This document shows, one piece after another, positions 1-25,964 of a stretch of 26,274 bases of DNA. The translations under genes and the position numbers were made by a program. The notes below the pieces were generated by a model. That model saw only the letters and a program-made list of their open reading frames with translations, ran no database searches and was not told the origin of the DNA. The stretch comes from a virus: UHGV virus genome UHGV-0174150; one strand, written 5' to 3'. The stretch's first letter is position 1. The number at the start of each line of letters is the position of its first letter.

Positions 1-396
1 TTTCCTGAGAAAAGCGAAACAATTGAGCAGTATCTTGTAAAGGAACTTCATGGTGTTGATTTTGGATGGACGCCAATACAGTCCATACAAGAGTCTGTAT
101 ATCAGACATGTGTTGAGCCACTGATCTCTAATGGATTTATGGTTTCACGTATACATAAGATGAATGGTCAGCTAGGTTTTCCGCCAGATATGATTCCTAA
201 TGGTTTACTGCCGCTGCCGAGATTTAGTAATACAGAACATCGTATGCACGCAATAATTGATACAGATCATTATGTTGAAGGCAACATGTCAACTGATTTG
301 CAGTTAATTGAAAAACAGATTCTTTCGTTGCATAGTAAAGTTAAAGAAGCATTTGAAGGCATGGTTTCAGATTTTGCGCGTGCTATTTGGTACTGA
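1..396 (+). CDS. hypothetical protein, C-terminal part; 5' end outside window
   Basis: Frame 1 is open from nt 1 to TGA at 394-396; the ORF track reports only the 139-396 part from an internal ATG. AT-rich like the two downstream ORFs. No motif recognised. Confidence 0.45.
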   Translation, partial: FPEKSETIEQYLVKELHGVDFGWTPIQSIQESVYQTCVEPLISNGFMVSRIHKMNGQLGFPPDMIPNGLLPLPRFSNTEHRMHAIIDTDHYVEGNMSTDLQLIEKQILSLHSKVKEAFEGMVSDFARAIWY

Positions 397-415
397 AACT
401 ACGGGGGTGACTAAA

Positions 416-1078
416 ATGTATGCAATTCCTACTGGAAGCATAGGCTCTGTAGATCGGTATACTCCAGATTCGCAGTCAAGCTCATGTGTATCAGGTGTTG
501 TTGCTGTCGCCGCATCTTTACTATTAGTTGGTACGGGGGCTTCATACCCTGTAAATGCTTATAAGCAATGGCGTCAGTATGTTCAGCCAAGGGTTCAGTT
601 TGCATTTGATTCCATAGAGTCAACGTACACGCCTGCAATTTCTCCTGAGGTTGATGTCAGGAATGTTGCCCAACATTTGGCTAATATTCGAGAAGTGCTG
701 TCTCCATCAATGTCAGAACTGGCTAAGGATTTGGGGATAACTCGGCAGGCTCTCTATAAATGGTTGTCAGGGGAGAACCAGCCTGATGATGCTTCAAAAG
801 TCCAATTCATTACCAACCTCAGTAATGTTGCTGACTCTTTTTCCAAAGCTGGACTCAATGATGCGAAGCTATTGGTGAAAATGAAAGCATTCAATGGTAG
901 GTCATTGATGGACTTAATAAAAGAAGGTGAGGATTGGAACAAGCCAGTTCAGGTACTGATTGATGAAGCTAAAGCGATGAATGCAGCTGCTGAATCGACC
1001 AATTACTTAGCAAGCAAGGCGAAACCGACAGATGATTGGAAGTCATCTATTTCAATTCCTAGAACAGTAGAGGAATAA
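416..1078 (+). CDS. hypothetical protein with XRE/Cro-type helix-turn-helix motif
   Basis: ATG at 416 with GGGGGTGA Shine-Dalgarno at 403-410, 20 nt after the upstream stop. Segment SMSELAKDLGITRQALYKWLSGENQP looks like an HTH_3 motif. Gly/Ala-rich hydrophobic stretch near the N-terminus. AT-rich. Confidence 0.55.
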   Translation: MYAIPTGSIGSVDRYTPDSQSSSCVSGVVAVAASLLLVGTGASYPVNAYKQWRQYVQPRVQFAFDSIESTYTPAISPEVDVRNVAQHLANIREVLSPSMSELAKDLGITRQALYKWLSGENQPDDASKVQFITNLSNVADSFSKAGLNDAKLLVKMKAFNGRSLMDLIKEGEDWNKPVQVLIDEAKAMNAAAESTNYLASKAKPTDDWKSSISIPRTVEE

Positions 1079-1087
1079 ATCACATTT

Positions 1088-1936
1088 ATGTTGGTACGAG
1101 GAACATCATGGCGTCAGGGGCATGTTCTTAAACATGATGATGCCGTTTCACTTGGACTTCTGAAGCCTGATGAAACGAACCATAAAGTTGTAGTTATAAC
1201 GCATGATTGTGATTTACAGAGTAATTCTGAAAAAAACGTGGAACTGATGTTTGGCCCCTTGAAAAAGGGGTCAAGCAAGATGAAAAGAGCTAAGCATCCG
1301 AGAATCCTCGATCTATGCTTTGAAAACCCAGAAAGTGCTAAGAAGAACGCAGTAGAGCTTCGGCATGAAAGAAAAGTCATCATTTCTAAAGAAGCTTTCC
1401 GTTGTGAGGAAAACGATCCGGCATTCTCCATTAGCACAGAAGAGAAACAAGCTCTTAAGCAATGGTTAGCAGCTAAGTATGGTCGTCCAGCGTTTCCTAA
1501 CTCGTTTGAAGAGCGCTTGCGGGCTTACGACGAGGATAAAAAGTTTATTTTCGAAAAAGAAGTTGCGGACATTATCGCCACAAACGCAGAGCATTTGATC
1601 GGAGTTTTTTTCGATTTGGGCGAAGAAAGATTTAACGATCTTGAGGAAGGCATACCATATGAGCTTTCTATCAATGTTGTTTATGATGCAACTGAAGGTG
1701 GCCCCGATGCCAGAGGGGCGGCTGAACAAACCTGTTCTGATCTAAAGGCATTGTTTTATAAGTTTTATGGTGATCCAATCTTGGGACATTCAGAGCTTAT
1801 AGAATTGAATACGTGCATTGCTGTTGCCGATACTCATTTCTCCCTGTATGCATTGAGGCGGATGGATCAATGGAGGGTGGAATACATCAGCCTTGAAGAA
1901 GATTCATATGGCGATTTCATTGGTGCCGGTGTTTAA
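1088..1936 (+). CDS. hypothetical protein (282 aa), possible effector partner of the HTH protein
   Basis: ATG at 1088 with GAGGAA about 12 nt upstream, 9 nt after the previous stop (operon-like spacing). AT-rich. No Walker A, HEPN or PD-(D/E)xK motif recognisable by eye. Stop codon lies inside the 1930-1965 palindrome. Confidence 0.6.
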   Translation: MLVRGTSWRQGHVLKHDDAVSLGLLKPDETNHKVVVITHDCDLQSNSEKNVELMFGPLKKGSSKMKRAKHPRILDLCFENPESAKKNAVELRHERKVIISKEAFRCEENDPAFSISTEEKQALKQWLAAKYGRPAFPNSFEERLRAYDEDKKFIFEKEVADIIATNAEHLIGVFFDLGEERFNDLEEGIPYELSINVVYDATEGGPDARGAAEQTCSDLKALFYKFYGDPILGHSELIELNTCIAVADTHFSLYALRRMDQWRVEYISLEEDSYGDFIGAGV

Positions 1937-1973: not shown

Positions 1974-3008
1974 TCAAGCATCGCCTAATTTATATTCGTC
2001 AAAACGAATAATTTCGTCATTAAGCCATTCATTTAATTCCATTAATCTTTTTTGAAGTGGAATCAATTCATTACGAACGAATACTCGACTAGCTTTTTCC
2101 ACGTCTCCAAACCCACCAACGTTGCTCGGCATAATTCCCATCATCTGCGGTGGCACGCGGTGCGCTGCCATCATGTCATCGCGGCTAACGTTCTTGATGT
2201 TAAGAAACTCGTCTTTCGCCGCAACCTCTGATAACGGGATGATCTGGATGCCGTCCTTTTTGCCGTTGGGCGAATACATAAACAGGTTGCGGAAGTTACC
2301 CGGTCCTTTGGCGCTTTTCATTGCCTGACGGATATTGTTCACATCCTCCTGGTTCTGTGCTGCGTCGGTCATGTACATAATGAAACCTGCGTGGCTGCCG
2401 TTGATGTAATACTTCCGGCGAAACAGCGTTGCGGACTCGTTGAGCAGGGTTGACGGGATGGCGGAGAGATAGCCTGGCAGCCCGTAAATCTCCTGGTTAA
2501 TATCCGGCTCCAGCAGATGAAAGATGCTGCCCTGCGTAAATTCATAGGGCTGCGTGGTCATGCCATACTGCACAAACCAGTAGGTATCCAGGTCTAATCC
2601 ACGTCGGGTGTATTTTGCCAGGGCAGGCTCAAGGGCGATAACTTCACCGAATCGGTTCGTGCGTTTCTCCAGGTAGGCGTTACCAAATACCAGATAGTCC
2701 TGCACAAAACGCGAAAAAGCCTGCTGGCTGAGCAGCGGATGAGGGATATAGGTACTGGTCAGAATGTTGCACTTTACTGCAATCGGGGAACTGTGATGCA
2801 CGGCGGCGCGGAAGGTGCGCGCCAGTCCGTCAAAGCTGACGGGCGGCTCATACCAACGGTCCATCTGTACGCATTCCACATAGTCCAGCAGTTCACGGCG
2901 GTCCAGAACAGGAACGGGATCGCCGAAGCTGAATGCTTCGGCTGTAGTTTGACTTTTAAGCTGGATCTGTTTCGTCGCCGCAGCTCGGTTCTTCTTACTC
3001 TTTCCCAT
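1974..3008 (-). CDS. Q: portal protein (P2 Q-like)
   Basis: 344-aa ORF whose position and length match P2 gpQ. Start ATG overlaps the P stop (ATGA coupling); the ORF track extends 1 codon further to a TTG. Confidence 0.9.
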   Translation of the reverse strand: MGKSKKNRAAATKQIQLKSQTTAEAFSFGDPVPVLDRRELLDYVECVQMDRWYEPPVSFDGLARTFRAAVHHSSPIAVKCNILTSTYIPHPLLSQQAFSRFVQDYLVFGNAYLEKRTNRFGEVIALEPALAKYTRRGLDLDTYWFVQYGMTTQPYEFTQGSIFHLLEPDINQEIYGLPGYLSAIPSTLLNESATLFRRKYYINGSHAGFIMYMTDAAQNQEDVNNIRQAMKSAKGPGNFRNLFMYSPNGKKDGIQIIPLSEVAAKDEFLNIKNVSRDDMMAAHRVPPQMMGIMPSNVGGFGDVEKASRVFVRNELIPLQKRLMELNEWLNDEIIRFDEYKLGDA

Positions 3009-4774
3009 CAAAAAATCTCCACAATATTGCTGGTATTGGCGGATTCGCCCTGCAGCGGTTCGTTAAACAGTGCGTGCATCGTTGCCCATGCCAGATCGGC
3101 GTGGCTGGCTTCTTCGCTGCGGCTGGCTTCATAGGTCGGGCGGTTGCCACTGGCGGTGGTGGTGCGACGGATTGCCATAAATGACTGCGCAATGTCGGTA
3201 TGTCCGGCGTCAAACTCCAGACGGCGGTGGCTGATAATGTCGTAGGCCTTGAGTACCAGGGCGTTTTTAACGTTGGGGTTGTAGACAAACTCCCGGACGG
3301 CAGGAAAGAACGCTTTCACGTTCTCGTAAACCCCGTGACCAACGCCGGTTGAGTCGATGCCGATGTAGGTCACGTTGTACTGCTCGGTCAGTTTTTTGAT
3401 TGCGTCAGCCTGGGCGCGGAAGTCCATCCCGCGCCACTGGTGACGCTCAAGAATGCGAAACTTACCGCCCGGCACGGCTGGCGGTGCCACCACCACGCAT
3501 CCGGCGCTGTCGCCGTTCTGCGTACCTTTTGCCGGGTCATAACCGATCCACACTTCGCGCCAGCCAAACGGGCGCAGGGCCAGAGCATGAAAGTCGGTCC
3601 AGACTTCCCAGCTGTCCACCATGCACGCCTGCAGCTCGCTGAGCGGGAACACGGACGCGAGATCGTCCACGAACTCGCACATCAGCAGGTTCTGGTATTC
3701 GTCCGGGCTGTACTCCATGCGCAACTGGTCAAGGTCGAACAGGTTACAGCCGCCGCGCACCGCATCTTCCACGGTGACTATCTGGCGGTATTGCCCGTCT
3801 GCGCACAGCAGGCCGGGGGCCAGATTGCTATGGGACAGGTCGATGTCCACCTTGTCGGCTTTGTTGCGTCCACGGTTGAACAGTGCACCGGACCAGAACG
3901 GATAAGCACTGTGGGTCAGGCTGGATGGCGTGGAAAAATAGGTTTGTCGCCATTTTTTGTGAATAGCCATACCGGAAGCCACTTTGCGCAGCTCCTGGAA
4001 TTTCGGTATCCAGAAATATTCATCCAGATACAGGTTGCCGTGGTAACTCTGGGTCGTGCCGCCAATGGTCTCGAGGAAGTATAGAGTGGCCCCCTAGGGA
4101 AGCTACATCGGTGCGCCTTTCAGCTCCACCTCCACTTCTTTGGCGAAGTCGATGATGTACTGTTTAAAGACGTGGGCCTGTGCCTTACTGGCGGAAAGGA
4201 AAATCTGGTTACGTCCGGTAAGCAGGGCGTCAATCAGGGCTTCACGGGCAAAGTAAAAGGTCGCGCCGATCTGGCGTGACTTCAGCAGGTTGCGGATGCG
4301 GTTGGCTTTTCCGGCTTCCCTCCAGTGGCGCTGGTAGTTGAACATGGAGGAATGGAAGATTTCTTCCAGCTTCTCAATCTGCTCATCGGTGAAAACATTC
4401 TTTTCCGGCTGACGGCGCGGGCCTTTGTTGCGGTTGGCGACGTTAGGGTTTAAGTCGGCTTCGTTGCCGCCATTGTTAAACTTGCTGATCCGCGCGTGGC
4501 GCTCCGACTGGCGCGCCAGCAGGTCAATCTCTTTGAAATCTTTCCCTTCTTTGTGCTCCTTCATAATGAGCTGGCAGTAGCGTGCGGCGGTGGTGAGCTG
4601 CATCTGATCCAGCGGCCCATAGTCACCCCACTTGTCGCGTTTTTTCCAGCTGTGAACGGTTGCAACTTTCTCGCCCAGCATTTCAGCAATGCGGGCTACG
4701 CGGTATCCCTGAAAGTACAGCAGCATGGCCTGCCGACGGGGATCGAGATCTGCGGGTGTCAGTGTGGTGTTCAT
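3008..4774 (-). pseudogene. P: terminase large subunit (P2 P-like), single frame interrupted by two in-frame TAG codons at 4103-4105 and 4094-4096
   Basis: ORFs 4103-4774 (N-terminal part) and 3008-3982 (C-terminal part) are in the same frame. Reading through gives ...KGAPM*LP*GATLYFLETIGG... with no other stop; total 589 codons, about P2 gpP size. Neighbouring residues align to P2 P as recalled from memory. Confidence 0.85.
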
Positions 4775-12622: not shown

Positions 12623-13220
12623 TCTGCTGCCACCGGGTTCAACTTCACTGGAGCGCCGACTGGCGCAAACCTGCAGCGGGATTTCTGATCTGCAGGTGCC
12701 GCTTCGTGACTTGTGGAATCCGGCAACCTGTCCGGTCAGTTTCCTGCCTTATCTCGCCTGGGCGTTCTCTGTGGATCGCTGGGACGAGGGCTGGACAGAA
12801 AGCGTCAAACGCCAGGTAGTGAAGGATGCTTTTTATATTCATCAGCACAAAGGAACCACCAGTGCCGTACGGCGGGTGGTGGAGCCGTTCGGCTTCCTGA
12901 TCCGCATTATTGAGTGGTGGCAGACCGGAGAAACACCGGGCACGTTTCGCCTGGATATCGGCGTGCAGGACCAGGGCATCACTGAAGATACCTATCTGGA
13001 ACTTGAGCGGCTGATAAGCGATGCCAAACCATGTAGCCGTCACATGATCGGCATGTCCATCAATCTGCAGACCAGCGGTCCGCATTGGGTGGGGGCCGCC
13101 AGCTATCTTGGCGAAGAAATCACGATCTATCCGTATATCAACGAAACAATTATTTCCGGCGGCACCGCGCATGAAGGCGGGGCGGTCCATGTTATTGACA
13201 CAATGAGAGTGAATCCATGA
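12615..13220 (+). CDS. I: baseplate protein (P2 I-like)
   Basis: 201 aa; synteny between J and H. Confidence 0.8.
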   Translation: MNSLLPPGSTSLERRLAQTCSGISDLQVPLRDLWNPATCPVSFLPYLAWAFSVDRWDEGWTESVKRQVVKDAFYIHQHKGTTSAVRRVVEPFGFLIRIIEWWQTGETPGTFRLDIGVQDQGITEDTYLELERLISDAKPCSRHMIGMSINLQTSGPHWVGAASYLGEEITIYPYINETIISGGTAHEGGAVHVIDTMRVNP

Positions 13221-15580
13221 GCACAAAATTTTATACCCTGCTGACGGATATTGGCGCGGCGAAACTTGCCAGCGCCGCCGCGATCGGTGTGCCGCTAAAA
13301 ATTACCCATATGGCGGTGGGCGATGGCGGCGGAGCATTGCCGACGCCGGACGCAAAGCAGACGGCACTGGTAAATGAGAAACGCCGGGCTGCGCTGAATA
13401 TGCTCTATATCGACCCGCAGAACAGCAGCCAGATTATTGCTGAACAGGTGATCCCTGAAAATGAGGGTGGTTGGTGGATACGTGAAGTGGGTCTGTTTGA
13501 TGAGTCCGGGGCATTGATTGCCGTGGGCAACTGCCCGGAAAGCTATAAGCCGCAACTGGCTGAAGGCAGCGGGCGTACCCAGACCGTGCGCATGGTGCTG
13601 ATTACCAGCAGCACGGACAATATCACCCTGAAAATCGACCCTGCTGTAGTGCTGGCAACCCGCAAGTATGTGGATGACAAGGCACTGGAGCTGAAGGTGT
13701 ACGTGGATGACCTGATGGCAAAACATCTTGCCGCGCCGGACCCGCATTCACAGTATGCACCCAAAGAAAGTCCAACGTTTACCGGAACCCCCAAAGCGCC
13801 AACGCCAGCGGCGGGGAATAATACCACGCAGCTTGCGACCACCGCGTTTGTACAGGCGGCACTGACGGCCCTTATTAATGGTGCGCCAGCCACGCTGGAC
13901 ACGCTGAAAGAAATAGCCGCAGCCATTAACAATGATCCGAATTTCAGTACCACCATTAACAATGTGCTGGCACTAAAAGCACCGTTGTCGAGTCCGGCAC
14001 TCACCGGAACGCCAACAGCCCCCACGGCGGCACAGTCGGTCAACAATACACAGATTGCCACTACGGCTTTTGTGAAATCGGCGATTGCGGCAATGGTGGG
14101 TTCTGCACCTGCGGCACTGGATACACTGAACGAACTGGCGGCGGCGCTGGGGAATGACCCGAACTTTGCCACGACAATGCTTAATGCACTGGCAGGTAAA
14201 CAACCGCTGGACAATACGCTGACTAATTTGAGTGGAAAGGATGTAGCTGGTCTTCTCGCATACCTTGGTATTTCAGCGCCAGGCGGCGCAGGGTCAGTTG
14301 GATATAAATTAAATGCAGAGAATACAGTCTCACGAACTGCATACGATAATTTTTCTGACCGAATTAATGCCGGAGACTTTGGTATTAAGGGTGATGGGAT
14401 AGCTGATAATGCTGCTGCGATAACCAAGGCATGTGCTGCATTGCAGAAACTGTACGAAATTGATGGAATCCGTCGCACATTGGTATTTACAGATGGGTCA
14501 TATCGCACATCGGCCACAATTGTTGTTCATGCAAATATGCTTATTCATTGCGAGGGGGGGGTTGTATTCCAGAATATCGGGGCAGTAAAAACCTTTGCAG
14601 CGGTGGAGCTTCAGGGCGGATCCAAGAAAAGCGTACTCGGCACTATGGACGGGTACGGTAGCGCCATCCTCATCAGGGGTAGCACTCATACTGTCGAATT
14701 TCAGACAATCAGTAACTGCGTAGATGGGGTGATTTTCAGGGCTGACAACAACTGGGCATCCACGAAAAGCAGCCTGGATAATGTGGTTCGTGGTGTTCAA
14801 ATTGGCAAATGTACTAACGCTATCGTGTTTGAGCAGAACGCTAATAATCTTGTGCAACAGGGCAATGAAGTTCGTGTCAACTTTGTGTCTGAAACCCCTA
14901 ACACACTGCTTTTCAGAAACTTCGATGGATTTGTCCACACAGAGGAATCTAACTGGGATAGTAACTTCGTAGAGCTGATAGCGAGTGACCCAATAACGCT
15001 GCCAGATTCATCTATGGCTAGGAACTCTACCCCCCATAGCGTATCAAACCTGACAATGGCGGTTAAATCATGGTGCGGAGGTTGGGTGCCCGATGCAGGC
15101 TCCATGTGCCTGATTAGAGGTGCGTTCAGTACCAGTACGTTCGAGTTCAATCTGGCCCAACGAGTAGGCTTAAACGAGGTTGTGGATGCCGTCGGCGTTA
15201 ATTCATTTGGTTCGTGTATTTTACGAAATACTCGTTATGAGAATTTAGGTAATTCAATATCTTATATCGGCGTTACTACTGGCGCTGAGTTCAATAGTGG
15301 TTTAGCCCTTTTCCGTAGTAAGTTCCGAGTCAGATTTACCGTGGTACCTCTGGCCGCAGGCCAAACGTACGGACTGTCTTTTAAGCATGTGCTGAGCCAG
15401 CGCTCAAATACAGGCAGGATGCGGATCGTACAATACTCGGATACAGCCAGGGGCAAGCTCTTGATTGAGGTTCGTGATGCGGGTACTGAGACGCAGGGCC
15501 TGGTGCGGGTGTGGTTCACAAATTTAACTCAGACAACTACGTCCACAATGGACGTAGAAATTATTTTTGAAGCTGAATAA
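13217..15580 (+). CDS. H: tail fibre / tailspike, mosaic: P2 H-like N-terminal half joined to an AT-rich C-terminal module with a pectate-lyase-superfamily-like motif
   Basis: N-terminal roughly 335 aa match P2 gpH including the NSPALTGTP...NDPNFATTM...AGKQP repeat region. After about nt 14220 composition turns AT-rich and the protein carries DFGIKGDGIADNAAAI, like the start of beta-helix depolymerase tailspikes. Confidence 0.85.
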   Translation: MSTKFYTLLTDIGAAKLASAAAIGVPLKITHMAVGDGGGALPTPDAKQTALVNEKRRAALNMLYIDPQNSSQIIAEQVIPENEGGWWIREVGLFDESGALIAVGNCPESYKPQLAEGSGRTQTVRMVLITSSTDNITLKIDPAVVLATRKYVDDKALELKVYVDDLMAKHLAAPDPHSQYAPKESPTFTGTPKAPTPAAGNNTTQLATTAFVQAALTALINGAPATLDTLKEIAAAINNDPNFSTTINNVLALKAPLSSPALTGTPTAPTAAQSVNNTQIATTAFVKSAIAAMVGSAPAALDTLNELAAALGNDPNFATTMLNALAGKQPLDNTLTNLSGKDVAGLLAYLGISAPGGAGSVGYKLNAENTVSRTAYDNFSDRINAGDFGIKGDGIADNAAAITKACAALQKLYEIDGIRRTLVFTDGSYRTSATIVVHANMLIHCEGGVVFQNIGAVKTFAAVELQGGSKKSVLGTMDGYGSAILIRGSTHTVEFQTISNCVDGVIFRADNNWASTKSSLDNVVRGVQIGKCTNAIVFEQNANNLVQQGNEVRVNFVSETPNTLLFRNFDGFVHTEESNWDSNFVELIASDPITLPDSSMARNSTPHSVSNLTMAVKSWCGGWVPDAGSMCLIRGAFSTSTFEFNLAQRVGLNEVVDAVGVNSFGSCILRNTRYENLGNSISYIGVTTGAEFNSGLALFRSKFRVRFTVVPLAAGQTYGLSFKHVLSQRSNTGRMRIVQYSDTARGKLLIEVRDAGTETQGLVRVWFTNLTQTTTSTMDVEIIFEAE
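13769..14215 (+). repeat. two tandem ~74-codon tail-fibre repeat units inside H
   Basis: SPTFTGTPKAPT...NDPNFSTTINNVLALKAPL directly followed by SPALTGTPTAPT...NDPNFATTMLNALAGKQPL; unit boundaries approximate. Confidence 0.55.
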
Positions 15581-15817: not shown

Positions 15818-15863
15818 TGTGCGAACATTCGACCATTAATGGAACCTAACGGAGAAGTTTAAC

Positions 15864-16163
15864 GTGGATATATCCCCATTTCTTCATACTTGTGCCGCTG
15901 TACTTATCCAAGCGTTTTTTGGTTACTTTTTTGGTAGGTGGGGGTATGGCGGCATTATTGGCTGCGTGTGGTTTATTGCTCGTGAACAAACGCAGGCTGA
16001 ATATCGATGGATAGCCGAGTTCGGCCACGGAAAGCGGATCAACATGCCGTGGTGGGGAGGTTTCGATATCAGGGTGTGGAATGTTGGAAGCATGCTTGAT
16101 TTCCTGGTGCCGGTAATAGTCTGTTCCCTGGTGTATGCCTGCGTGGTGTATCGGCAGGCATAG
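15864..16163 (+). CDS. hypothetical Trp/Gly-rich small membrane protein (99 aa)
   Basis: GTG start with GGAGAAG 6 nt upstream; hydrophobic N- and C-terminal segments. A 126-codon antisense ORF (15846-16226) overlaps it fully and I judge that one less likely. Confidence 0.4.
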   Translation: MDISPFLHTCAAVLIQAFFGYFFGRWGYGGIIGCVWFIAREQTQAEYRWIAEFGHGKRINMPWWGGFDIRVWNVGSMLDFLVPVIVCSLVYACVVYRQA

Positions 16164-16247
16164 CGTCATGATAATCACCAATCGAACGTTTAAGAAAATG
16201 AAGAGATAACGGCTAACTGGCATCATTTCCGGTTTCTATTCAGGGGG

Positions 16248-16820
16248 ATGATCATGCTTATTGGATATGTACGCGTGTCAACAAATGACCAGAACACCGA
16301 TTTGCAACGCAATGCGCTGAACTGCGCGGGATGTGAGCGGATTTTTGAGGATAAAATCAGTGGCACTAAGTCCGACAGACCGGGGCTGAAAAAACTGCTC
16401 AGGACACTATCGGCAGGAGACACGCTGGTTGTCTGGAAGCTGGACAGGTTGGGGCGCAGTATGCGGCATCTTGTTACGCTGATAGAGGAGTTGCGCCAGC
16501 GTGGTGTGAATTTCCGAAGCCTGACTGACAGTATTGATACCAGTACCCCAATGGGCCGTTTCTTTTTTCATGTCATGGGTGCCCTGGCTGAAATGGAACG
16601 CGAACTGATAGTTGAACGTACCAGGGCAGGGCTGGCTGCAGCTCGTGCCAAAGGCAGAGTAGGTGGACGCCGTCCTAAGTTGACCACCGAACAGTGGGCA
16701 CAGATTGGGCGTTTACTCGAGGCCGGAGAATCAAGACAGCGTATTGCACTGATTTTTGATGTGGGTGTTTCCACAATTTATAGAAAATTTCCGGCAAATA
16801 AGAGTAATGAATCCCCCTGA
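16248..16820 (+). CDS. serine recombinase, Hin/Gin/Pin/Cin-family DNA invertase
   Basis: N-terminal LIGYVRVSTNDQ..DLQ catalytic motif, VVWKLDRLGRS, MGRFFFHVMGALAEMERELIVERT, and C-terminal HTH (GVSTIYRKF). Probable true start is the ATG at 16254 (MLIGY). Confidence 0.9.
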   Translation: MIMLIGYVRVSTNDQNTDLQRNALNCAGCERIFEDKISGTKSDRPGLKKLLRTLSAGDTLVVWKLDRLGRSMRHLVTLIEELRQRGVNFRSLTDSIDTSTPMGRFFFHVMGALAEMERELIVERTRAGLAAARAKGRVGGRRPKLTTEQWAQIGRLLEAGESRQRIALIFDVGVSTIYRKFPANKSNESP

Positions 16821-23734: not shown

Positions 23735-23824
23735 TTCTTCGCAATGGAGAACTTTTAAGTTTTCAAAATGGAATAATGAGGTATCATTATTGTGAATTTA
23801 GCAAAAATGGGGAGAACTCGAAAA

Positions 23825-24043
23825 ATGATGATTTGCCCACTGTGTGGAAGTGCCGCCCATACTCGCAGCAGTTTTCAGGTATCTTCATTGACCAAAGAGC
23901 GTTACAACCAGTGCCAGAACATTAACTGCAGCCATACTTTTGTTACCCATGAAACTTTTGTTCGTTCGATTGCAACGCCAAAAGAGTCAAATCCGGTTCA
24001 GCCGCATCCAATGAAATCAGGACAGGTGGCGCTCTCTCTTTGA
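23825..24043 (+). CDS. ogr: Ogr-type zinc-finger late transcription activator
   Basis: 72 aa from ATG 23825 (GGGGAGA Shine-Dalgarno upstream); CPLCG...C..C zinc-finger and KERYNQCQNINCSHTF closely parallel P2 Ogr. Confidence 0.85.
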   Translation: MMICPLCGSAAHTRSSFQVSSLTKERYNQCQNINCSHTFVTHETFVRSIATPKESNPVQPHPMKSGQVALSL

Positions 24044-24278: not shown

Positions 24279-25964
24279 TTATCCTAATCCTGGCCATACC
24301 ATGACGATGATTGTCCCTGCCAGCGTCAGCAGGACGTTGGCGATTGCATAGGTGCCCGCATAGCCCAGCGCCGGGATGTTACTGCGAGCTGTATCACTGA
24401 TGATCTCCATTGCCGGCGCGCAGGTACGTGCGCCCATCATTGCGCCGAACAACAGCGCGCGGTTCATTCGCAATACATAAGCACCGAACAAGAAACAGAT
24501 AACCACGGGCACCAGACTGACAATCAATCCGGCAATCAACATCTGACCGCCAATCGCGCCCAGGCCGTTATTAATACCGCTACCGGCGCTCAGACCAACG
24601 CCTGCCATAAACACCATCAAGCCGAACTCTTTCACCATGCTTAATGCACCCTGCGGAATGTAACCGAAGGTCGGGTGGTTAGCACGCATAAAGCCCAGCA
24701 TAATTCCGGCGAATAACAACCCGGCAGCGTTCCCCATGCCGAAACTGAATGTGCTGAACTGGAAGGTGATCATCCCGATCATCAGCCCAATAACAAAGAA
24801 GGCGCAGAATGCCAGCAGGTCAGTGACCTGGCTGTGAATCGAGATAAAGCCGATGCGATCGGCGATGGTTTTTACGCGGCGGGCATCGCCGCTGACTTGT
24901 AAAACGTCACCTTTGTTAAGCACGACGTTGTCATCTATCGGCATCTCAATCTGGCTACGAATGACGCGGTTAAGGAAGCAACCGTGATCGGTCAACTTCA
25001 GTTGTGCGAGACGTTTACCTACAGCGTTATGGTTTTTAACGACCACTTCTTCAGTGACGATACGCATGTCGAGAAGGTCACGATCGAAAACTTCTTTACC
25101 GTTACGGAAGCTGGGATCGAGTCGGGCATGGGCGTCGGGATAGCCTACCAACGCTATTTCATCGCCCATTTGTAGCACGGCATCACCGTCTGGATTTGCC
25201 AGAATCCCGTTACGTCGAATACGTTCAATGTAGCAGCCGGTTTGTCGATAAATACCCAGTTCACGCAGATTTTTGCCGTCGGTCCAGGCCACCAGTTCCG
25301 GGCCGACGCGATAGGCGCGGATCACCGGTAAATAAACCTTACGGTTGGCATCAGTGTCCAGGCCACGTTCGCGGGCGATTTGCTGGGCGCTGGTCTGTAA
25401 GTCCTGATGCTGCAATTTCGGCAAGTAACGCGCACCAACAATCAAACTCACCAGACCGATTAAATAGGTTAAGGCATACCCGAGGCTCAGATTATCCAGT
25501 GCCAGTGAGAGCTGCCTGCTTTCCATGCCGGAATGACGCAGTGTATCGCCAGCACCGACCAGAACCGGTGTCGACGTCATAGAGCCTGCTAACATACCGG
25601 CCGTCAGGCCAATATCCCAGCCAAACAGCTTACCTAACCCTAAGGCGATCACCAGCGCACTGCTAACCATCACCAGTGCTAGCATTAGGTAATTTTTCCC
25701 ATCGCGAAAAAAAATGGAAAAAAAGTTCGGTCCGGCTTCGACCCCGACGCAGAAAATAAACAGCATAAAGCCAAGATTAAGCGCATCGGTGTTAATGCTG
25801 AAATCTTGTTGGCCTAATAACAGCGATACGACTAAAACGCCAATGGAATTACCCAGTTGGATCGAACCAAGTCGTAACTTTCCGAGACATAGCCCAAGCG
25901 CGAGGACCACAAATAATAACAGAATGTAATTCCCATTTAACAATTCGGCGACGTTTATATTCAC
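24279..25964 (-). CDS. ybjL: AAE-family putative transporter (YbjL/YidE-like), host chromosomal gene
   Basis: 561-aa multi-TMD protein with a central soluble region; I recognise it as enterobacterial YbjL from memory, not from a search. GC and codon usage host-like. Confidence 0.85.

Follow-up and report, generated by a model that had tools for sequence, protein, structure and literature searches.

The locus and its genes

The window considered here is the whole 26,274-nucleotide stretch of the virus genome UHGV-0174150, a P2-like prophage that carries a cassette as cargo in the variable cos-Q region, a defence hotspot. The subject of the present analysis is the gene at 416-1078, which encodes a 220-residue protein with an Xre-type helix-turn-helix (HTH) domain. 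This protein can be described with high confidence as the regulatory component of a mobile cassette whose three genes are conserved together. The genes and signals of this end of the window are as follows.

1-396, forward strand: TIGR04255-family gene, 3' part (last 131 codons and stop), first gene of the cassette, cut by the window start (NCBIfam)
403-407, forward strand: GGGGG, Shine-Dalgarno-like, 8 nt ahead of ATG 416 (read from the sequence)
416-1078, forward strand: Xre-type antitoxin-like regulator gene, 220 aa (open reading frame, Pfam, PGAP, homologues, structure model)
1088-1936, forward strand: 282-aa partner gene; predicted N-domain of MazF/Kid/CcdB/ToxN fold, second alpha/beta domain, motifs THDCDL and YGRPAFP
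1930-1965, unstranded: inverted repeat of 16 bp, perfect, loop of 4 nt, at the junction of the convergent 282-aa and portal genes (-27.9 kcal/mol, z = -6.7)
1974-3011, reverse strand: P2-type portal gene Q (PGAP 'phage portal protein'), marking the phage side of the cargo locus, outside the cassette

The reading frame of the central gene runs from ATG 416-418, located 20 nt past the TGA that closes the upstream gene (394-396), to TAA 1076-1078. The same 220-residue frame is called by PGAP (NCBI) in 18 complete Escherichia coli genomes, at about 96-97% DNA identity, under the names 'XRE family transcriptional regulator' or 'transcriptional regulator'. The initial annotation had thus delimited a real open reading frame, with correct coordinates and correct peptides for its two outstanding segments. 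It had also envisaged that the true start might lie downstream, which would leave a small HTH protein only. The N-terminal extension is translated and under selection, since the homologues are uniform in length (about 205-230 aa, full length across 279 clusters), the residues T40, G41 and W52 and the motif YVQP[RK] are nearly invariant in the family, and the ratio of nonsynonymous to synonymous substitution rates (dN/dS) over codons 1-79 is 0.1-0.3 against diverged homologues. At the protein level, residues 1-79 diverge 2-3 times faster than residues 80-220. A 123-residue product starting at Met98, with the upstream part untranslated, has in its favour a few database entries of 122 aa (P0027, P0045, P0050); against the low dN/dS over codons 1-79, the motifs conserved upstream of Met98, the uniform full length and the Shine-Dalgarno sequence ahead of ATG 416, it is scarcely credible. 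Two antisense frames (429-638 and 754-942) are without support, and an Rfam scan of positions 1-2100 of the window returned no RNA family.

Recurrence and distribution of the cassette

The recurrence of the three genes was followed in 80 loci drawn from one-genome-per-species collections and in 50 viral loci from IMG/VR. The TIGR04255 gene stands immediately upstream of the HTH gene in all 80 genome loci. The pairing with the 1088-1936 gene, on which the initial annotation had made its interpretation depend, is equally a lasting one: the 282-aa gene comes next in about 75 of the 80, the others being frameshifted, interrupted by an insertion sequence (IS) or a group II intron, or replaced. Among the viral loci, the three genes are complete in 48 of 50 and the remaining two are cut at the contig end; a convergent P2-type portal gene lies just downstream in 35. 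A search of the INPHARED phage collection gave no match at megablast sensitivity.

The hosts of the cassette belong to the Gamma-, Beta- and Alphaproteobacteria, with sporadic occurrences in Chlamydiae, Nitrospirae, Chloroflexota, Gemmatimonas, Acidothermus and metagenome-assembled genomes of Methylacidiphilaceae. Outside phages, its neighbours include HipBA, Fic, HigBA-like, NERD-UvrD, SACS/NOV_C and Eco57I genes as well as IS elements.

Several loci depart from the standard arrangement. At L073:6543-10357 and L074:6503-8579, the HTH and 282-aa genes are parted by an inserted IS transposase gene or the reverse-transcriptase gene of a group II intron, and the HTH protein of L073 has a truncated C-terminal tail. 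In two Methylococcaceae loci (L015:3416-4597 and L019:2197-3378) the 282-aa gene is absent and a 393-aa protein with a Fic motif (HPFGNGNGR) is encoded about 375 bp past the HTH gene, which may be an effector swap or a mere neighbour. The loss of the tail and that of the 282-aa gene show a mixed relation, the tail being gone in L072 and L073 and retained in L015, L019, L042, L136 and L082.

Domain organization and fold of the 220-residue protein

The protein can be divided into the following segments.

485-550, forward strand: hydrophobic stretch, residues 24-45, ending in GTG[SA]x[YF]; marginal transmembrane-helix candidate or partner-docking peptide
551-592, forward strand: predicted helix, residues 46-59, with the W52-x2-YVQP[RK] motif (alignment and structure model)
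665-790, forward strand: Xre/Cro-C1-type HTH, residues 84-125 (Pfam HTH_3; predicted local distance difference test, pLDDT, 85-91; many HTH structure matches)
791-1015, forward strand: helical domain, residues 126-200, which in the model superposes together with the HTH on MbcA, NatR and VPA0769 (DUF2384-type toxin-binding antitoxins)
1016-1075, forward strand: C-terminal tail, residues 201-220, SKAKPTDDWxSSxSIPG, strongly conserved, of low model confidence; W208, S213 and P215 invariant

The HTH peptide singled out by the initial annotation, SMSELAKDLGITRQALYKWLSGENQP, corresponds to residues 97-122 and lies mid-protein, as had been stated, and matches Pfam HTH_3. This match (PF01381, residues 98-124) is marginal in the window protein, at 23.6 bits for a cut-off of 23; in the family it is found in 88 of 91 members at E <= 0.1, the best at 3.6e-07. 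A profile search for distant HTH relatives brought back the homogeneous same family alone among the 120 matches listed.

An AlphaFold2 model was built on a 91-sequence alignment. Residues 81-190 are predicted at pLDDT 84-91, residues 1-40 form a coil below 50, residues 46-59 a helix of moderate confidence, and the model is weak again in the tail, from residue 200 or so. By structure comparison, the closest protein is MbcA (6FKG; score 9.7, 99 of 111 residues, root-mean-square deviation 2.4), followed by NatR (8QNL; 8.4), VPA0769 (8GUG; 7.5) and the antitoxin of RES-Xre (6GW6; 5.1), while HTH-only proteins reach at most 6.6 over about 55-64 residues. Foldseek agrees with this comparison. As modelled, the HTH and the helical domain have the fold of the MbcA/NatR (Xre-DUF2384) antitoxins, a kinship that holds at the fold level only, since a sequence match to DUF2384 is lacking. 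The part of the initial annotation that proposed a multi-domain regulator or an antitoxin-like component gains from this predicted fold; its other suggestion, membrane association, is less favoured than partner docking, as discussed below.

The two partner proteins

The 282-aa gene begins 9 nt past the stop of the HTH gene. The predicted structure of its product displays an N-domain with the SH3-like barrel of the MazF/PemK/CcdB superfamily. Residues 117-145 and 256-282 (KQWLAAKYGRPAFPNSFEERL, RRMDQWRVEYISL...) are among the most conserved, yet they have low confidence in the model; these segments may be interaction surfaces that fold only within a complex. The family counts 1975 clusters at 50% identity. 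The inverted repeat at 1930-1965 is likely a bidirectional terminator shared by the 282-aa and portal genes.

The first gene of the cassette is identified from its fragment at 1-396, which scores 41.5 bits against TIGR04255 in NCBIfam (cut-off 30). Its full-length counterpart in E. coli (L001:8587-9396) encodes 269 aa and is named 'TIGR04255 family protein' by PGAP. It is the most conserved of the three cassette members, with a mean column identity of 63%, many invariant Arg, His, Asp and Glu residues and invariant motifs including RxGLRYLDA and HAVIDTDHY, a pattern that suggests an enzyme. No relative of known structure or function was found in Pfam, the PDB or PADLOC, and a literature search for 'TIGR04255' retrieved no paper. 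Scans of the neighbouring genes with PADLOC, Pfam, NCBIfam and PHROGs returned just TIGR04255 and one PHROG of unknown function; none of the three cassette proteins has a significant match among PDB sequences, whether searched by sequence or by profile.

Natural fusions of the TIGR04255 and HTH proteins are encoded in three Arenicellales genomes (L074:5089-6435, L078:5104-6426 and L080:5104-6426). The TIGR04255 domain is followed there by some 38 aa of hydrophilic linker and then directly by the HTH protein from residue 80 onwards (DVRTVPEH...), the entire N-terminal module being absent. Such gene fusions would imply that the two proteins are physically associated.

An operator-like array upstream of the cassette

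Of 66 loci, 61 have an array of two or three TGT[CA]AAC heptamers on the forward strand ahead of the first gene, with constant spacings of 12 bp and then 19 bp. In the majority of loci, this array accounts for all or nearly all copies of the heptamer within about 12 kb. It takes the form TGTCAACC-N4-TGTAAACT-N-TGTCAAC, for instance around L001:8500-8586, and the consensus over 40 distinct sequences is (T)TG(G/C)-N5-gTGTCAACCa--gTGTAAACTgacaac----TGTCAAC. The second heptamer overlaps a -10-like TAAACT hexamer, and a -35-like element (TTG/TGG) stands 17-18 nt away from the latter. The window holds no copy of the pattern, the site being upstream of its start. Since array and cassette occur together in hosts ranging from E. 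coli to Acidothermus, and since the 220-residue protein is the only DNA-binding protein of the cassette, the natural reading is that this protein would repress its own operon through the heptamers.

In Serratia sp. L9 (L002:5093-5148), an 8-bp tandem repeat (GTGAGATA) is present seven times between the operator-like heptamers and the TIGR04255 Shine-Dalgarno sequence; the E. coli counterpart (L001) is a single degenerate stretch. The Serratia repeat could vary in length and thereby alter expression.

Proposed mechanism and alternatives

On balance, we lean towards a reading in which the 220-residue protein would be the middle, antitoxin-like subunit of a three-gene operon that it autorepresses, neutralizing a partner and docking through its N-terminus. 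From the predicted folds and the conserved gene order we infer the following mechanism. The HTH would bind the TGT[CA]AAC array over the operon promoter and keep the cassette repressed. The helical domain and the Trp-containing tail would hold the MazF-fold protein, a putative toxin, and perhaps the TIGR04255 protein, inactive in a complex, as antitoxins do, while the N-terminal extension would dock the protein onto its TIGR04255 partner. Loss or titration of the 220-residue protein, for example during phage infection, would then release the effector, following a toxin-antitoxin or abortive-infection logic. The position in a P2 hotspot, the mobile and sporadic distribution, and the defence or toxin-antitoxin neighbours agree with this logic. 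Taken separately, the labels 'antitoxin' for the protein and 'anti-phage' for the cassette are plausible, a little short of probable.

Several observations weigh against this reading. The antitoxin label of the 220-residue protein and the toxin label of the 282-aa protein both rest on predicted folds. The Pfam family DUF2384/Xre_MbcA_ParS_C is unmatched by the window protein and falls outside the 25 Pfam families commonest among the 91 members, and a profile search against PDB sequences reached MbcA only at E 0.63. The 282-aa protein has no match in Pfam, NCBIfam or PADLOC, none in Pfam among 73 members of its family, and none among PDB sequences; sequence matches to the PemK/MazF families are likewise absent. 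The DUF2384 antitoxins described so far act together with RES or ART toxins and are not known to pair with MazF-fold proteins. Palindromes are the usual targets of XRE dimers, unlike the motif found here, which is chiefly a direct repeat, yet a TGTCA-N16-TGACA arrangement is also present. The TIGR04255 protein, given its strong conservation and many invariant polar residues, may itself be an enzyme or an effector and play more than a passive part. A 165-aa relative standing alone as an orphan among housekeeping genes (P0093, L082:5001-5498) has neither the N-terminal module nor the partners and retains the C-terminal tail. Lastly, the cassette is absent from the table of validated systems (S2A) of Rousset et al. 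and from the consulted portion of their table of additional tested systems (S2B), and among the supplementary files of that study its peptides occur in the catalogue file alone.

What the hydrophobic stretch does is a matter of choice between a membrane anchor and a docking peptide. In the former case, residues 24-42 or so would form a single-pass helix, with the N-terminus outside and the HTH in the cytoplasm, anchoring the protein, as regulator or antitoxin, in the inner membrane and signalling or being released through proteolysis or membrane perturbation. The peptide noted initially (CVSGVVAVAASLLLVGTGASYPVNA, residues 24-48) does reach, in the window protein, a mean hydropathy of 2.03 (Kyte-Doolittle, 19 residues), the segment is followed by the basic residues K47, R50 and R55, consistent with the positive-inside rule, and the entry of Rousset et al. 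for the cassette reads '1 TM in protein 2' (PMC9122126). In the family, by contrast, the hydropathy median is 1.56, with just 38 of 91 members at 1.6 or above, and the Hessa insertion energy is above 0 for every member. The core comprises only about 12-15 hydrophobic residues and runs into the sequence-specific GTG[SA]x[YF] motif, which is retained in members such as Atlantibacter P0066 and L042 even though the stretch is polar or charged there. AlphaFold2 predicts a coil and no helix (pLDDT 32-42), the N-terminal module is dispensable in the TIGR04255-HTH fusions, and the partner proteins have no obvious membrane-spanning stretch by eye, neither having been submitted to a predictor or a hydropathy scan. 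A membrane-anchored regulator thus appears unlikely. We favour a peptide that would dock onto the TIGR04255 protein because of the weak family hydropathy and unfavourable insertion energy, the specific motif, the polar members, the lack of a predicted helix and the loss of the module in fusions.

The same array and HTH could also serve a purely transcriptional controller, comparable to the C-proteins of restriction-modification systems, which would time or limit the expression of its two neighbours and neither bind nor neutralize their products. The conserved operator-like array does overlap a promoter, and the HTH is the sole family match at the sequence level. Such a role would leave aside the roughly 100 conserved residues beyond the HTH, including a domain of the MbcA-like, toxin-binding type and a near-invariant tail, as well as the physical association implied by the TIGR04255 fusions, and we consider it improbable. 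Far less probable still is a function as the lysis-lysogeny regulator of the prophage (Cro, CI or antirepressor), which would suit a prophage-borne HTH protein that weakly matches P22_Cro and a PHROG 'transcriptional regulator'. The prophage has its P2-type immunity region (integrase, CI, Cox-like) at another site, and the identical three-gene unit occurs with its own operator in many non-phage chromosomal contexts of distant phyla.

Prophage context

Beyond the portal gene, the window continues with terminase, capsid, tail, gpD and Ogr genes up to a host permease gene at 24279-25964. The GC content is 38-46% in region 1-1936, versus 52-63% in the phage core. In the E. coli and Serratia relatives, P2-type cos-region sequence is found directly upstream of the cassette, which is therefore placed between cos and Q; the same cos-region sequence is present in a clone of a P2-hotspot system made by Rousset et al.

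Two other features of the prophage deserve mention. A serine invertase of Hin/Gin/Cin type (Resolvase and HTH_7) is encoded at 16248-16820 on the forward strand, within region 15846-16820, where its neighbours are a 126-aa minus-strand frame that matches nothing in Pfam and the tail-fibre gene (13217-15580). The region probably corresponds to the P2 Z/fun position and holds an invertible host-range segment. At the far end, the Ogr/Delta zinc-finger gene (23792-24043) precedes the host permease gene (Asp-Al_Ex/TrkA_C, reverse strand), and the prophage is expected to end, with its attachment site, around 24.05-24.28 kb.

Relation to known systems and significance

Among characterized modules, the nearest structural kin of the 220-residue protein are the Xre/MbcA/ParS antitoxins (MbcA, NatR, VPA0769 and the Xre protein of RES-Xre; COG5642). 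The present protein differs from them by its 79-residue N-terminal extension and conserved Trp tail, by a downstream partner that is predicted to be a two-domain MazF-fold protein instead of a RES NADase or an ART, and by an obligatory third gene (TIGR04255) upstream. With respect to MazEF, Kis-Kid and CcdAB, there is no PemK/MazF or CcdB sequence match, the partner, at 282 aa, includes a second domain, the antitoxin-like protein belongs to the Xre type instead of AbrB or RHH, and three genes are involved. In the tripartite toxin-antitoxin-chaperone (TAC) systems (HigBA-SecB-like), the aggregation-prone extension of an Xre-type antitoxin reportedly imposes dependence on a third co-encoded protein. 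In a comparable manner, and by analogy only, the hydrophobic extension vanishes here when the 220-residue protein is covalently fused to the third protein. The extension differs in being N-terminal, not C-terminal, the third protein is enzyme-like TIGR04255, not SecB-like, and the gene order is another one.

The cassette itself has been catalogued before. It is the P2-hotspot system 59 'HTH_31', with 69 occurrences, of Table S5B in Rousset et al. 2022 (PMC9122126), having the same three genes at the same locus and proteins 94-97% identical. That paper catalogues it only, without defence test and without structural or functional annotation. The validated three-gene 'hp+hp+hp' system of the same study (Rst_3HP) was considered as a possible identity and rejected, its proteins being unrelated. 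PADLOC-DB 2.0 yields just weak HTH-only matches (RmrA, mad1) and none for the 282-aa and TIGR04255 proteins, and HTH, XRE and MazF go unmentioned in a 2026 NAR paper on P2/P4. The protein can be viewed as an antitoxin-like regulator of predicted Xre/DUF2384 fold in an unusual tripartite setting.

The P2/P4 hotspots have been a repeated source of working anti-phage systems, most untested loci having proved active (PMC9122126, PMC13586616). The cassette is common, having been recorded at 69 P2 loci by the 2022 survey and being represented by hundreds of protein clusters from different phyla, and it is absent from defence databases. It joins parts not previously seen together, namely a predicted MbcA-like antitoxin fold, a two-domain protein of predicted MazF fold and the uncharacterized TIGR04255 family. 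A bolder view, which we regard as doubtful, is that of a new tripartite toxin-antitoxin or abortive-infection family, in which an Xre-DUF2384-fold antitoxin would be re-used on a MazF-fold effector; the hydrophobic peptide would make this antitoxin dependent on TIGR04255 or tether it to an enzyme-like TIGR04255 sensor or co-effector, and P2-like phages would spread the whole as an anti-phage weapon. The value of the finding lies in the three-gene unit more than in the HTH protein alone. A functional assignment would give two sizeable families of unknown function, TIGR04255 and the 282-aa proteins, their first role and, if the proposed mechanism is true, DUF2384-type antitoxins could control toxins besides RES or ART.
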